In this document: positions 51,915 through 61,967 of the stretch, one piece after another
How the letters are laid out: each line of letters opens with the position of its first letter
Position numbering within the stretch: the first letter of the stretch is position 1
NCBI GenBank assembly: GCA_964106645.2
Contig: OZ067041.1
Reading direction: 5' to 3' (one strand)
Source of the DNA: Podarcis pityusensis
Taxonomy: Eukaryota
Length of the DNA: 64,000 nt
Notes under the pieces: generated by a model
What the model was told of the DNA's origin: nothing
Seen by the model: only the letters and a program-made list of their open reading frames with translations
The model's database searches: none
Translations under genes and position numbers: made by a program

Positions 51915-52193
51915 GTGATTTTCATAATACAGAGAGCACCCAGGACCACGGTTTTGAAGTTCCTGAGGAGAAAGGTCCTCCAGCAGACAGTTGTGTGGAG
52001 AGACTTACTGTATATGAAAAGGCCAGCGACCAGTCCGCAGAAGATGTCAACCAGGCCCTGTGCCCCCACCAGGACAGGAAGCGTAAACATTCTGGTGAGA
52101 AAATGCAGAACGATGGAAGCCTTAAAGAAAACTTTGTAGAGGAGCAGGAAGATGAATTTGCATCAAAAGCAAAAAAGAGGAAGAACTCCAAAG
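51915..52193 (+). CDS. BCOR: BCOR exon 7 homologue
   Basis: AAG|(C)DFHNTESTQDHGFEVPEEK...DRKRKHSG...KAKKRKNSK G|GTAAC; 279 nt, phase 1-1; basic NLS-like clusters. Confidence 0.93.
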
Positions 52194-52525
52194 GTAACCC
52201 GGCCAAGTTGGTCACTCTTTAAGGCATGGCTTGTGAAGTGAACACTCTTTGGATTAACCTATGTCCATTTATGACCTGTGTTGTGCCAATCCCAAATCCT
52301 CGCCTGAATTATGTTTGGGTACCTACAAGGTACAAGAATAGTCATTGGACAACGTAATCTTTGGCCAATGCAAATTGCTGTAGTGCATGCAAACCCCTCC
52401 TGAGCTAATCTTTTAAAAATGCATAGTGTGGTGGTGAAGCTGAAACAATCTGCCCCACAAGTGAACTATAGCTTTTGTTTCAAGTTGAGGGCCTTTTGAT
52501 TAATTTTTAGTTATTTTTCCATTAG

Positions 52526-52879
52526 ATGACTGGCCTGAGAGGGAAATGACAAACAATTCCTCTAACCACTTAGAAGAGCCCAATTGTAATGAGGTGACCA
52601 ACCTGAAGGTGTGCATTGAATTAACAGGGCTCCATCCCAAAAAGCAGCGTCACCTGCAGCATCTTAGGGAACTGTGGGAGCAGCAGGTGTCACCAGAGAG
52701 ATCCCCACCCGGCAAGTTGGGCCGGCAAAGCAGGAAAGATTTAGCTGAGGCTGTTCAGCCAGAGGCCACTGCAAAGGTCAAAGACTGCACAGAAGAAAGG
52801 CACACCAAGAAAAGGTCAGAGGTCAAAAGCAATAGAAGTTGGTCTGAAGAGTCCCTCAAAACAAGTGACAATGAACAAG
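52526..52879 (+). CDS. BCOR: BCOR exon 8 homologue (long form including 8a)
   Basis: TAG|(D)[18 protein letters not shown]...[19 protein letters not shown]...[16 protein letters not shown]|GTATG; 354 nt; AF9-binding LKVCIEL; internal acceptor at 52628. Confidence 0.97.
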
Positions 52880-55845: not shown

Positions 55846-56174
55846 GTATCCCTCCATTCCCAGCATCTCCGCACATGAAGACCCTTTCATCTACAAATAT
55901 AAACAGCAAAAGGCAAGCCCAGCCAAGCTGTACTCCAGTTTCAAGGTTGGCTGCCAAGCAGCAGAAAATTAAAGAAAACTGGAAGACAGATGTGCTGTGC
56001 ACAGACGAGGAAGAAGATTTTCAAGCTGCATCCCTGCTGCAGAAACATGGCGACTGTGAGAAGCCACCAGGGAAACGTCAGTGTAAAACAAAACATTTGG
56101 CACTGCAGGAAAGGAGAAGGAGGTCATCCCTGACAGGAGATGATGTCACTGATCTCGAAAGTGCTGAGGAGAAG
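55846..56174 (+). CDS. BCOR: BCOR exon 9 homologue
   Basis: TAG|(G)[16 protein letters not shown]...[29 protein letters not shown]...KRQCKTKHL...AEEK|GTATCT; 329 nt, phase 1 to 0. Confidence 0.93.
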
Positions 56175-56520
56175 GTATCTTTATTCCAACCCAGTTGTCC
56201 CACTAATATTTCAGGTTTGGCTAATATCAGCCACTTTAAACGCTTAGCTTGTTGTCTTATGTAGTGGCCCTTCCAAGCCCTTTCTGTTTACTTTAAAACA
56301 CATTGTATTGTTCTGCAGTGCTCAATCCACTTTACTCCAGGACACATCTGTGAGGGCTCCTCAGATTCTTTCAGGATTTTGATCTTAAAACTTTTAGAGG
56401 GTATAAATCTAGAAGCCGACACTACTACACTTTTAAAAAGAGAGAGAAAGGAAAATGGATTTTCAATGAATTATTAAGGATGGATGGGTGGGGTGTGGAA
56501 TCCAGTAATGATTTTGACAG

Positions 56521-56795
56521 GTCATAGTTAATGAGGAGAATCTGGAAGCGACCAGAGGCTCCTTCAGACTGTGACTCTTCACCAGTCAAATCACATGAGC
56601 AGGCATTGTACAATCGCCTGCAGCAGCAGAGTCCCTCATTATTGCCTGTCTCTTCAGCCCTCACAGCTGCAGATTGCAAGTGCCCCTCAGGAGACTCCCC
56701 CAAGTCGTCCCATGCCGCCAGAAGCCCGAAGGCTTATTGTCAATAAGAATGCTGGAGAAACTCTTCTGCAAAGGGCAGCCCGACTGGGATACGAG
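56521..56795 (+). pseudogene. BCOR: Frameshifted BCOR exon 10 homologue
   Basis: Homology spread over three frames: VIV / [19 protein letters not shown]...LLPVS / [47 protein letters not shown]; 275 nt (not a multiple of 3); GC donor. Confidence 0.88.
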
Positions 56796-58339
56796 GCAAG
56801 CATTGTTTCTGAAGTTCACTACTCTGAATTACAATGTGGAAGATGCTTGGTGTCACACATAATTCTAACTGTGCACGTGGTTGGAGTCTCTCTTTGTGTT
56901 CCTTCTCAACATGTCGAAATATCTCCAGGCTCTCTGTTCTGTTTCTTTATTCAAGCGTGCAATTAGTATATTTTGTGAGAAGGGCTAGGAAAGAAACAAT
57001 ATAAACCCCTGTAAGTTAATAACCTTGAGCCTGAATAGGCGCCAGTCATTTTCAATAAGAAGTCAGTTCTTGATGTGCTTTGCAGGATGGGGATCGTGAG
57101 TAAGTAGTGGGGGATGGGGATAGATACCCCGATACACAGCCAAAGTTAACATATATGCTACATTTCAGGAAGGTTAATTACCGGCACAGCTTTGGCAGTG
57201 TGAGAGTGTGGACACGCTTCATTTCAGGGCTGCTTTTGAACTTCACATTTTAATGTTATGAATATATATTTTGTGGTGCATTCCCATATTTGAAAAACAA
57301 ACTGGCATTTAGAGCTGGTAAATCACTGGGACTTACAGACTTCAGGTGAAAATAGTCATATGTACAAATAGTTTGGAGATCAGACTTATTAGCAAAGCAG
57401 CTCTATAGGTGCCTATGTCTTTGGGTTTATTTTCCTTTCTACATTTTTAGACATTGCTTGTAAGAATGCTGCCATCCTTAAAATGCTATATATAGAGAGA
57501 GAAAGAGGGCGGGGGATGAGTCCTGACGAATCCTTCTGTTAATTTTGTTTTATGGAAAGGTTTTGTTTACTTCTACCTGTAGCAATAAAATATGAGGTCT
57601 TCAAAAGCAGGGGTGTGGACTGGGGAACTGGTGCCCTCCATATGTTGCTGGACTCCAGCTCCCATAAACCGCAGGGATGATGGGAATGACTTGCTTCCAG
57701 TGGTGGTTATAGAGCTTAGTCAAGCACAAGTCAATCAGAACTTTACCTGTTCTGATCCTTAATCAAGAAGCAGTCAATTTGCTGTACCCCTTTTCCTTGA
57801 TGAAAAAGAGAAGAGAATCAGTTCAGTATGTTGAAGCCTGTGTTGAGGGGCTAGATAGCAATGTGGCAACTGAAATACGGGTAGTGGTGATATATTTAAC
57901 TTCTTGTGTGGTAGGGCAATGTGGCATCTTGTATATGGGAAAAGTCCAGTGATTAAAGTCACAACAGACAATTTCATTCTCCACCGCATCATGGAGCACT
58001 TTCTAGTCTTGTTGTGTTGGATGAGTTTCAGTTAGCAAGACTTATGGACATGGACAAGGTGCTTGACTTGGTTTGGGCAACTACTTCTGCTCTTCTTCCT
58101 TGATGCTCATGGTTTTTTAAAACGGCACGGTTGACCACATCAGAGAGGTGATTAAAGCCTCCTTGCAAGAGGGGGTGGGCCCCCCACCTGTCAAAAGGAG
58201 ATAGTGTTAAGACCACTCCTTAAGAAACACTCTGTGGATTCAGAAAATCTAAATAGAAATTGGTCAGTCACTAATGTTTCCTTCTTGGGCAAGGTTCTTG
58301 TGGGGTTGCAGGACAGATCTTGGGTATCCTGGGTGAAAC

Positions 58340-58820
58340 CAATCTTTTAGTTCCATTTCAGTTGGGATGTAGGCTTGCTTTGGGTGACCCTGTTAGGAGA
58401 GAGACAGAAGAGTGTGTTCCTGTTGCCGCTAATTTATTTCTCAAGGGCTTTTGACACCATTGGTCATTCTATGCTTCTGGAATGACTGTCTGAGCTGGGG
58501 TTAGGTAGCACCACTACCAATCTGACTTGGATGGTTGTTTTCAGAGGGTGGCGTGTGCTGGTTTTGACCTATGTGGCTTTGACCTATGTGGCTCAGCACC
58601 CCAATTCCTCAAGGGCCTCTTCTTCCCACATGAAGGAACCCAGACCCTACTCTGTGTGACCTCCTGTGGGAGGTGTGGAGGGTGAAAACAGGAGAAGGAG
58701 CCTTTTCCATGGTGGCCCCTCTCCCCTGTAAGTGGAGTGCTCTCTCCAGGGAGGCACACCAGTGCCTGTTTCTAGGTACCAGGCAGAGCCATTCTTATTC
58801 ACCTAGGCCTTGGGATCTTA
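58340..58820 (+). mobile_element. Highly degenerate L2 LINE fragments
   Basis: GCTTTTGACACCATTGGTCAT (AFDTIxH RT motif) near 58447 and L2 3'-end-like GGAGCCTTTTCCATGGTGGCCCC near 58698. Confidence 0.55.
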
Positions 58821-61247
58821 ATTTTAGCAGGGTGTGGTGGATCTGGAGCTGTTTTTATGTATGTTAGTTGTGTCTGCTGAGTGCCGATGGGGTGTGTTGG
58901 AACAGAATAGAAAAGGAATGGTTGGCTGACTAGGAGCACTCCCATGCTGCAGCATTTTGTTGCAGGACCCACTTGTCTCTGTAGGATCTATAGGTGTTAG
59001 TAGTGGAGACAGTTCTGAACCTCTGTTCTTCAGCCACATTGGGCTTCTGAGGATGGACATTGAGCACGAACAACAAGAGTTCAGCGCCACCTTATTTATA
59101 TATGTAACAACATTTTACATGAGACGCCCTTGGAAACGTTCTGCTTTTATAGCTACCACATGCCACTGGGAATCTTGCCTCTGACTTTGACGAGGTGTCC
59201 CATAGCTTAATTAATTCAAACTGTATTCCACGAGGCTTCAAGGAAAACAAATAAGGACAGTGCTGAAGGCCCTTTCCAGAGTAAACAGCGGCAAATACCA
59301 GATTAAAACTCCTCCTGAAACAGCTGTACTGAATGCACAGTTTGACGGGGAAAGGGAGAGGCATTCCTAGGTGGTACTCTCTGTGTCTTGACTTGGAGAT
59401 ATCAGTTACATGTCTCCTTTTCCTTCATCATGTCTGCTCAGGGCCAAACGAGATGTGATTGTTTCAGCTCAGTTTTGTGTATTGAAACACTCTGTAGGAG
59501 GAGGATTTTAATAGCAATGTGAGTGTAGTAGGTTGGGTGCCGACTCCACTATGTACCTATTGCTTACCTCTTCATGGACCTTCTCTCCAGAAGCTTTTTG
59601 CTTGGTTGTGTTTCAGAGCTTGGCTGTGGGGCTGGGGCGGGCAAGAGATGCGCCGTAATACCCAGATCACCAACTTTCATTAAGGAAAAAAAGAAAAAGA
59701 AAGTTTATGGCACTTTTAGAACCCAAGCTGTGAAGCAAAATGTGCAGCCCAATTGTGGAAACTCTAGAGAAGAAACACCCTTGCTTGCTTTTCACTTTTC
59801 CACCTTTTATTCTGGTCTTCCCTGGTGGAGAAGGGGTTGCTGCCCTATAGAAAACAATGCGTTTATTCAGGATTCGTGTGTAGCTGTGATTGGGGAATAA
59901 AGTGTTGTTGCACTTATTTTGGAGGGATTTTGTGTAGTGCACGTCAACCCTCAAATGTTGTCCAGTGCTATCCTGGTGTGTGCGGTTTATTTTTTTAGAG
60001 AGAGATGCAGCTGGCAGGGAGGGATGTGAAATTGATTATAGCAGCAGTGCCATTCATGAAGGGCTAGAGGTGTGTGAAAGGAGCAGGGAAAGAATTGCAG
60101 GTTTCAGCATTGAGTGGAAAGATGTTGCCTAGAAGAAAGTCGGATGTATAAATTGAAAAACAACAGAGAAATAGACCTGGAGCCCAATTTTCCCAGAGGC
60201 CATATCTACCCAGGTCTCTTTGCCACTACTCAGTCAACAGATCTAGTTTGATGCTAGCTATGTTTTATTTATTTCTTTGGAGTAATAAATTAACACTCTC
60301 CCCCCCGCCTCCCGCCCATCACCTTGCAGATGTGTAGGCAGAAGTTAATGGCAGATAAGCCATAGGTGAGGGAAAGTCTCTACTCAACACCTGTACATTG
60401 CTTTAAAGTCAGGCATGCACACTCTTTTCTCTCTCTGAGATTTGGACAGTTTACGTGTTTACAACATGCACAACCGTTGTCAGGACTAGATTGGCCCTGC
60501 ACTGGTGTGCAGCTGGCAACCTTTCAAATGACCTCTCTCATGTGACAGGCATAATCAGCTGAAATGCTGTAGTCCGTAAGACAGCCAGAAAAGTGTCTCA
60601 GACCCACAATACAACAAAGTTTTGAGATTTGTTTGTTGACAAACTTGTTTTCTTCATCTCTTAAATATAAATTGACAGGGAATATATTATCTTGAGGGAT
60701 GTTAAAATAACTTGTTTTTTTGTGGTGGTTTTTGTATGACCTTTCTAGTTTTTTGTTGTTGTTTTTTAAAATAAAATTTCTCACCCAAGTGTGTGCTCTC
60801 AACATTTTCCCTCTGTTATTGTACAGGAACATGCTAAAAAAGTCAGTTAATTTGGGAGCGGTGGTGAGGGGTGTGTGTGCATTGTGGATAGGGTTGTAGA
60901 CAGGAAATCCGAGGTTTTCTTCATGGTTTCCCCAGAGGAATGGGGTTTTGCTGGTAGAATGCATTGCAGGCCTCAGCCTAGGAAAGTCTGTTGGCTGCCA
61001 TGATACTTTGGCTGCGAGGGATATTTGCTCATAGGCGTTGCGTTTCCAAATGCCCTTCTTATCTGACTGCTTTATAGAAGGACTCCCCCTGGAACATTCC
61101 TCTTCTCTTCCCCCTCCCCAATTGAAACACTTCCCAGATGAATTGCGCCCCTCCCTCCTGTTTTCTTTAAGTGATAACCTCTGGTGTTAAAGATATCTCC
61201 ATAGCAACAAACAGTTTCTTTTCTCCACCCTTCCTGCCTTTCTCCAG

Positions 61248-61334
61248 GAAGTGGTTCTGCATTGTTTGGAAAACAAGGTCTGTGATGTAAATCACTATGA
61301 CAGGGCTGGCTGTTGCGTTGTAAAGAGACTTTAG
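61248..61334 (+). pseudogene. BCOR: Degenerate, truncated BCOR exon 11 homologue (ankyrin repeat)
   Basis: Strong acceptor TTTCTCCAG| then [24 protein letters not shown] (human [24 protein letters not shown]); homology stops ~61319, TAG at 61332-61334; the LHEACARGW...AQDGTR half is absent. Confidence 0.88.
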
Positions 61335-61721
61335 GCACATTATTCTTTCAGTGATTTCCTTTGCTGGCTTGGACGGAGGATGATGCACAGAATGCTCTGC
61401 GGATCCGTACTCATGGAACATGGATCTAGAGAGGCAGCCTGCCACACGTACTAAAGCAGCAAATGAGACATGCACACACCCCTCTCACACGCAGACACAC
61501 ACATTAAATAGGATTCCCATTTCTACTAGGCTAGAATGCATCACTTTCTAGCTGTCACGGAAGCATTGAAAATAATTCTGTGCTTTGGTTGGTGGAAACT
61601 GAGATGACTTTATAAATAACTATGCATCTTATAAATAACAACACACGGTTGCATGAATATGGCATATGGGCTAGAACTGGCCAGTAGGTGTCATGGTGAA
61701 TGCAGTTTTAAATTCTCTATA

Positions 61722-61967
61722 TTGGGGTTTCCAACCCTTTTGGGCTCAGGGGCACATTTGGAAAATGTTAGAAACTGCCACGTGATGACAAAATACACGT
61801 GTTGCAGAAGAAAAGCTGGTGATACACCAAAACCCGACAAATAACCCACATACTTCCTAAAACAAATAAAACACAAAAAGCTGAGCTCTCCCTCTCCCAA
61901 GCAAAATGCTCACAATCCAATGGCAAAACCAGGCAAGGCAATCTGCATCCAAGCAAAAGAAAAATCA

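Follow-up and report, generated by a model that had tools for sequence, protein, structure and literature searches.

A Frame-Shifted Exon Edge in the Intact BCOR Gene of a Podarcis Lizard and Its Probable Intronization in Squamates

BCOR has a role in the Polycomb complex PRC1.1 with PCGF1 and KDM2B (accessible text of PMC13703134), and PRC1.1 needs the ankyrin-plus-linker region of BCOR (human residues 1448-1633) as well as PUFD (accessible text of 10.1101/2024.05.21.595144). For a living lizard to have lost this PRC1.1 scaffold would be striking. A preliminary description of 64,000 nt of contig OZ067041.1 from Podarcis pityusensis (GCA_964106645.2; hereafter the window) reported two uncompensated frameshifts at the start of BCOR exon 10, raising the question of whether the gene is truncated in this species. 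The alarm was false. Both indels are real, and the BCOR reading frame is intact because they sit in a piece of the exon that is spliced out in the RNA of a close relative. Positions 56521-56657 are thus a benign, intronized exon edge within an intact BCOR gene. The features of the region are collected in Table 1.

Table 1. Features of the BCOR region, in window positions.
Feature	Position	Strand	Remarks
BCOR exon 9	55846..56174	+	329 nt, ends in phase 0; GT donor 56175-56176; RNA joint from 56174
Ancestral exon-10 acceptor CAG	56518..56520	+	Weak context; not seen used
Intronized remnant, first 44 codons of the old exon 10	56521..56657	+	+1 near 56530, extra Gln codon, +1 near 56654
TGA	56572..56574	+	Reached only via old acceptor 56521; predicted NMD target
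Working 3′ splice site, made of old codons	56635..56657	+	CAG 56655-56657, 76% pyrimidine tract, CTCAT
Actual exon 10	56658..56795	+	138 nt, 46 codons, PSQLQ to LGYE
Tandem in-frame CAG	56664-56666	+	9 nt past the working acceptor; annotated start in Anolis and Sceloporus
GC donor of intron 10	56796..56797	+	GC-AG intron; intron start conserved with turtle and snakes
Tandem partial exon-11 copy	61248..61334	+	Own AG acceptor, 28 codons, TAG; likely alternative last exon

The gene in the window is the BCOR of a Podarcis-type lacertid. Its exon 4 is an open frame of 951 codons that, in a protein comparison, matches Podarcis proteins at 100% identity (rounded). In assembly G000 we found one BCOR locus, together with one BCORL1-like locus on a separate contig; with a single BCOR locus, a sex-chromosome copy or a duplicate pseudogene is rejected. 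A second PUFD locus in the same assembly (C20:32851218-32852939) is likely BCORL1. When exon 10 is started at 56658, exons 6-15 form an open frame of 703 aa that ends at the natural stop and shows one mismatch in 703 to residues 1009-1711 of the P. lilfordi BCOR (P0001). The introns across these exons are GT-AG throughout save for intron 10. The check covers exons 4 and 6-15, with a short exon (about residues 992-1008 of P0001) left out; exons 11-15 lie outside the window, the true exon 11 being 1.9 kb past its end. A broken-looking "exon 11" at 61248 had suggested pseudogenization of the 3′ part of the gene, which is ruled out by the intact true exon 11 downstream. The PF15808 region, the ankyrin repeats and PUFD at the C-terminus all fall within the one open frame. 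Since PUFD is intact, binding of PCGF1/KDM2B in PRC1.1 is predicted, from sequence, to be retained. Reptile and bird BCOR models vary in parts of exons 7/8 (window 51915-52879), with isoforms of about 1595, 1677, 1693 and 1711 aa, a variation that goes beyond the mammalian 34-aa AF9 segment.

The preliminary description had its letters and positions right: CAG at 56518-56520, GTC ATA GTT at 56521-56529, AATG at 56530-56533, and GTC TCT T CAG at 56648-56657. Eight of 24 sequencing runs (RNA or presumed RNA, and DNA) were compared with the window. Run X1, which bears the same species label and may be the source DNA, is identical across 1601 bases. X8, X10 and X11, from three other organisms, each have a single contig across the region; among the differences listed for them there is no indel in 56521-56657 and one substitution, at 56581. 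Run X14 covers the second site alone and does not differ from the window by an indel there. Both indels are one-base gains in short runs, as might be expected of assembly or sequencing errors, but organisms A, C, D and E have the same letters in their short-read contigs and so, at the second site, does organism F. An error of assembly or sequencing is thereby refuted. A coverage gap at 59064-61715 in X10 and X11 was not taken as a deletion, since the contigs pass a filter. High-copy repeats occur in intron 10 at 57630-58060 and 58790-58980, with depth up to about 2600 in the DNA runs; one of them is also rich in RNA reads, and they are probably transposon fragments.

The nature of the two frame changes differs in part from what had been proposed. 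Splicing exon 9 to 56521 does give 17 residues followed by the TGA, and the BCOR-like frame does switch twice between 56521 and 56657. The motif AATG had been read as a 4-nt insertion because the comparison was with a mammal-type sequence. Mammal-type records (P0380, P0382, P0383) have one residue fewer before the basic run, where turtle, crocodilian and bird orthologs carry a fourth residue, T or M; AATG is therefore one codon plus one base, and the shift is +1. The change of YDLS to CDSS, likewise offered as a sign of decay, is no such thing, CDSS being the normal state in turtles, crocodilians and birds. In sum, the remnant measures 137 nt against 132 nt in orthologs, the difference being made up of +1, one extra Gln codon, and +1.

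Direct evidence for the splicing comes from the RNA of organism G, a close relative. Nine junction reads with eight start places in run X23 join 56174 to 56658, skipping 483 nt between GT and AG; this is the only joint listed among the 45 X23 reads. A 2135-nt contig from X15 carries the same joint and runs on into the true exon 11. RNA depth over the remnant is zero, both in X23 (bins 56178-56609) and in X24 (bins 56208-56615). Depth is low overall (about 2-17), and joints with fewer than three reads were left off the list; for X24, 15 of 20 joints are listed, and the exon 9-exon 10 joint is not among them. No read from organism G supports the old acceptor at 56521 or 56528 at this low depth and with at least three reads needed for listing, and for these two reasons minor use of the old acceptor could still go unseen. 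BCOR is thus transcribed and spliced in frame in this relative, with exon 10 starting at 56658 and not at the acceptor previously assumed. The old acceptor has 53% pyrimidine at -20 to -4 and a further AG 13 nt upstream. The working acceptor is preceded by 24 nt free of AG and by a branch-point-like CTCAT whose A (56638, a consensus match only) lies 19 nt upstream. A rescue through a TAG acceptor at 56525-56527 was considered and rejected: it mends the first shift, yet leads to a stop at 56744-56746.

The view that BCOR is truncated or pseudogenized in this lizard drew on the two non-compensating indels and on the stop that follows if the mammal-type exon boundary is assumed. RNA from the close relative is spliced past both indels, the exons downstream are intact and nearly identical across reptiles, and no second BCOR copy exists that could take over. 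The mature mRNA has neither premature stop nor frameshift, the other exons examined show no decay, and the frame-breaking changes are restricted to the released segment at 56521-56657. Truncation is refuted by the junction reads together with the open frame of 703 aa. What stands of the original claim is that the changes are decay rather than sequencing error; that they decay a coding exon and truncate BCOR does not stand, as the segment is spliced out. Orthologs with a different, frame-preserving boundary, which had been named as one observation that would overturn the claim, are present both in the RNA and in all scorable squamate proteins. If exon boundaries from mammals or birds are projected onto squamates, the result is a spurious "BCOR loss."

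We then tallied long and short forms of exon 10 in 369 proteins, all of them automatic annotations. All 129 scorable squamate proteins are short, i.e., they lack the 44 residues (141 in total, 12 being unscorable fragments). They represent 36 named taxa, among them geckos, skinks, a girdled lizard, lacertids, an amphisbaenian, a monitor, iguanians and snakes; two additional squamate proteins outside the tally are also short. The 48 turtle proteins divide into 25 short and 23 long, and the 15 crocodilian proteins into one short and 14 long. The 163 scorable bird proteins (165 in total) are all long, with no short form among them, so a single origin of the acceptor in sauropsids requires its loss or non-annotation in birds. 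Both forms are annotated in Chelonia mydas, Chrysemys picta, Pelodiscus sinensis, Eretmochelys imbricata and Crocodylus porosus. One of the protein searches favored short forms by design, and another, with the long segment as query, favored long forms; the latter returned no squamate among the 120 matches listed of 151. A query with exon 4, which is blind to exon 10, found short forms in 27 of 27 squamates. In Anolis and Sceloporus exon 10 starts three codons further, at the next CAG. Among 21 representatives of 50% clusters from divergent vertebrates, those that span the junction with exon 10 are long and one is without exon 10 altogether; the long form is therefore likely ancestral. The protein searches held no record of tuatara BCOR. 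Three records of Rhineura floridana (P0223, P0225, P0231) have a different insert, of 21 residues, between exons 10 and 11. Six others (P0376, P0386, P0387, P0388, P0389, P0391) are fast-diverged BCOR-like proteins of bird/mammal type, possibly paralogs or sex-chromosome copies.

The consequence for the protein is limited. PF15808 matches over 197 of its 219 positions in short forms and over all 219 in long forms; the short form drops about the last 22 positions of the domain and the linker beyond, and retains the ankyrin repeats and PUFD. No solved BCOR structure over the lost segment was found among the 60 matches listed of 319. Squamates provide a natural deletion test, in that they can dispense with 44 residues that birds, crocodilians, turtles and mammal-type records retain. 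This dispensability bears weakly on human in-frame variants in the segment.

The frame stays open because exon 9 is spliced to the in-frame CAG at 56655-56657, and we consider it very probable that the 137 bases upstream are a formerly coding piece, intronized when the squamate lineage fixed an alternative acceptor that already existed. The segment is coding in outgroups and removed by splicing in this lineage, and a frame-preserving optional stage is found, by annotation, in five turtle and crocodile species. The splice in the RNA of the close relative, the open frame and the distribution of the two forms are observations, from which we infer the following steps. The long exon 10 would have been the ancestral state. 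In early sauropsids, a Gln codon behind pyrimidine-rich Ser/Leu/Pro/Val codons may have become a second, frame-preserving acceptor, which would still be optional in the turtle and crocodile annotations. On the squamate (or lepidosaur) stem the downstream acceptor would have become the sole productive one as the old acceptor weakened. The freed 132 nt could then have gained indels, apparently different ones in lacertids and in snakes. Transcripts with a premature stop upstream of later junctions are cleared by NMD. Leftover use of the old acceptor (stop at 56572) or of the TAG acceptor (stop at 56744) would make such targets and so would have locked the change in.

This path resembles known ones. 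In the exon erosion of the Intronization Model, a coding stretch of 3n length beside an intron turns optional via a competing splice site, and a premature stop gained later leaves the spliced form alone (accessible text of PMC9612004); alternative 3′ splice sites can also emerge from constitutive exons (accessible text of PMC1876488). The order is the same here, an optional stretch and then a premature stop. The BCOR case differs in that it concerns a vertebrate, adds to an intron already present instead of making a new one, and has its optional stage (turtles, crocodile) and its fixed stage (squamates) both in living lineages, which makes it a clean vertebrate example of exon erosion. The squamate BCOR models of Podarcis muralis (XP_028583205.2), P. 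raffonei (XP_053242890.1) and P. lilfordi (CAI5772414.1) use the same downstream acceptor and lack the 44 residues, so the erosion is already implicit in the RefSeq/Ensembl models, which are automatic annotations. In turtles and Crocodylus porosus, the short isoforms (for example Chelonia mydas X11 vs. X9; C. porosus X4 vs. X1) place the acceptor at the same position and lack the same 44 residues. A long isoform is annotated beside the short one there, with the segment in frame, whereas in squamates the long form is unreadable. Mammalian BCOR likewise includes or drops internal segments by alternative splicing (accessible text of PMC13703134). The isoforms named in the accessible text of this 2026 review are only those with the 34-aa AF9-binding segment and a short truncated form; it mentions, for mammalian BCOR, neither a choice of exon-10 acceptor nor an isoform ending at the start of the ankyrin repeats. 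We found no paper on the lineage-wide loss of the 44 residues or on the remnant in openly accessible text, which leaves its absence from print unproven.

The remnant has decayed slowly. Of its 44 residues, 32-33 remain the same as in turtle and alligator, and 30 and 32 as in two birds; the identity of 33/44 is as high as that of the real exon 9 (74%). In a substitution-only simulation of 41 window codons the remnant fits about 0.12 substitutions per site. An identity of at least 77% has a probability of 0.56 at 0.12 and of 0.08 at 0.2, falling to no more than 0.002 from 0.3 upward. A neutral rate of 1.98e-9 per site per year (accessible text of PMC8760935) over about 200 My, the squamate root being placed near 200 Ma (accessible text of PMC12961865), leads us to expect about 0.4. 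The accessible text of the tuatara papers (PMC7116210; 10.1101/867069) gives no neutral rate for squamates. The remnant is thus better kept than neutral drift predicts, and yet its conservation is similar to that of the flank in intron 10. When the start of intron 10 is read through, 11 of 19 residues agree with a turtle record, and 16 of 25 and 11 of 18 with two snake records. Conservation with turtle and snakes covers the first 60-75 nt of this intron (window 56796-56870), a stretch that gene predictors read through in several species. Record P0390, a snake-type genomic read-through whose exon-10 core is identical to 23 named snake proteins, retains the remnant out of frame; its frame breaks, inferred back from the protein, sit elsewhere than in the window. 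The best-kept part of the P0390 remnant is the branch-point and pyrimidine-tract stretch needed by the new acceptor. Local constraint, through splicing, is the simplest and most likely account of the slow decay. Divergence of the region among the runs compared is only about 1-1.3% across species, too little for a constraint test.

Two other histories would make different use of this conservation. The old acceptor might belong to a regulated "poison" 3′ extension, with transcripts from 56521 or 56528 being destroyed so as to tune BCOR dose. Inclusion from either acceptor does meet a premature stop with several junctions downstream (that at 56744-56746 likewise makes a predicted NMD target), the old AG is kept, and the remnant has been preserved as well as exon 9, at a level that the simulation makes very improbable at the decay expected. 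The zero count of supporting reads weighs against such an extension, although NMD targets are rare in steady-state RNA, and so does the poor pyrimidine tract of the old acceptor. The slow change of the ordinary intron beside exon 10, the position of the best-kept stretch in P0390 and the small divergence among the species runs compared also weaken the argument from conservation. We regard a poison extension as quite improbable. The long isoform might instead have persisted as a minor coding form deep into squamate history and been lost late, separately in several families. This would suit the low decay of the remnant and the different places of the inferred frame breaks in P0390. One early loss can also yield different indels, however, the low decay is explained by slow local non-coding evolution, and not one of the 129 squamate records, from geckos, skinks, lacertids, an amphisbaenian, a monitor, iguanians and snakes, has a long form. 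Such a late loss is unlikely, and it alters the timing only; the verdict on the gene is unchanged. Early fixation of the downstream acceptor on the squamate stem accordingly remains our preferred history.

Further downstream, the window contains the partial copy of exon 11. In this copy, 96 of 123 bases are identical to the true exon 11 region. Past the first 70 nt the similarity is at shuffle level (113.5 vs. 110.4 ± 8.2), so we claim a partial duplication only. In the gecko Heteronotia binoei, RefSeq isoform X5 (XP_060090110.1, P0240, 1464 aa) ends in a 28-residue tail that is identical to the peptide of the copy at 25 of 28 residues, with the same stop, and the match includes the portion that departs from exon 11. 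In a neutral simulation, the copy-gecko match had P = 0.001 at 0.24 substitutions per site, arose in 0 of 5000 trials at 0.4, and had P = 0.2 at 0.1. The gecko isoform is the only one with such a C-terminus among 392 proteins; P0392 shares the final three letters of the copy's peptide by chance. From these comparisons 61248-61334 is likely a conserved alternative last exon, which would remove the ankyrin repeats and PUFD. In X24 RNA there is no depth on 61248-61334, at low coverage. BCOR had no matches in one supplementary file of a catalog of tandem exon duplications (PMC8373072), and we found no paper on an alternative last exon of BCOR in openly accessible text, leaving its absence from print unproven.

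That the copy is in fact used as a last exon is a tentative proposal, and a regulated function for it is more doubtful still. The broader idea, also doubtful, is that the 3′ half of squamate BCOR was rewired into a splicing switch, through the loss of the long exon 10 and the retention of 61248-61334 as a regulated last exon, which lacertids and geckos would have kept, stop included, for about 200 My. A role of the old exon-10 acceptor as an added NMD brake on this switch seems improbable. If the proposal is true, BCOR with this last exon would keep the parts that bind BCL6 and AF9 without the ankyrin repeats and PUFD, making it a natural isoform incompetent for PRC1.1 and similar to the products of truncating mutations in human disease. 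Confirmation by RNA would make the copy the mark of a new class of BCOR isoforms. Poly(A)-like signals, ATTAAA at 61503 and AATAAA at 61865, are present past the exon-11 copy.
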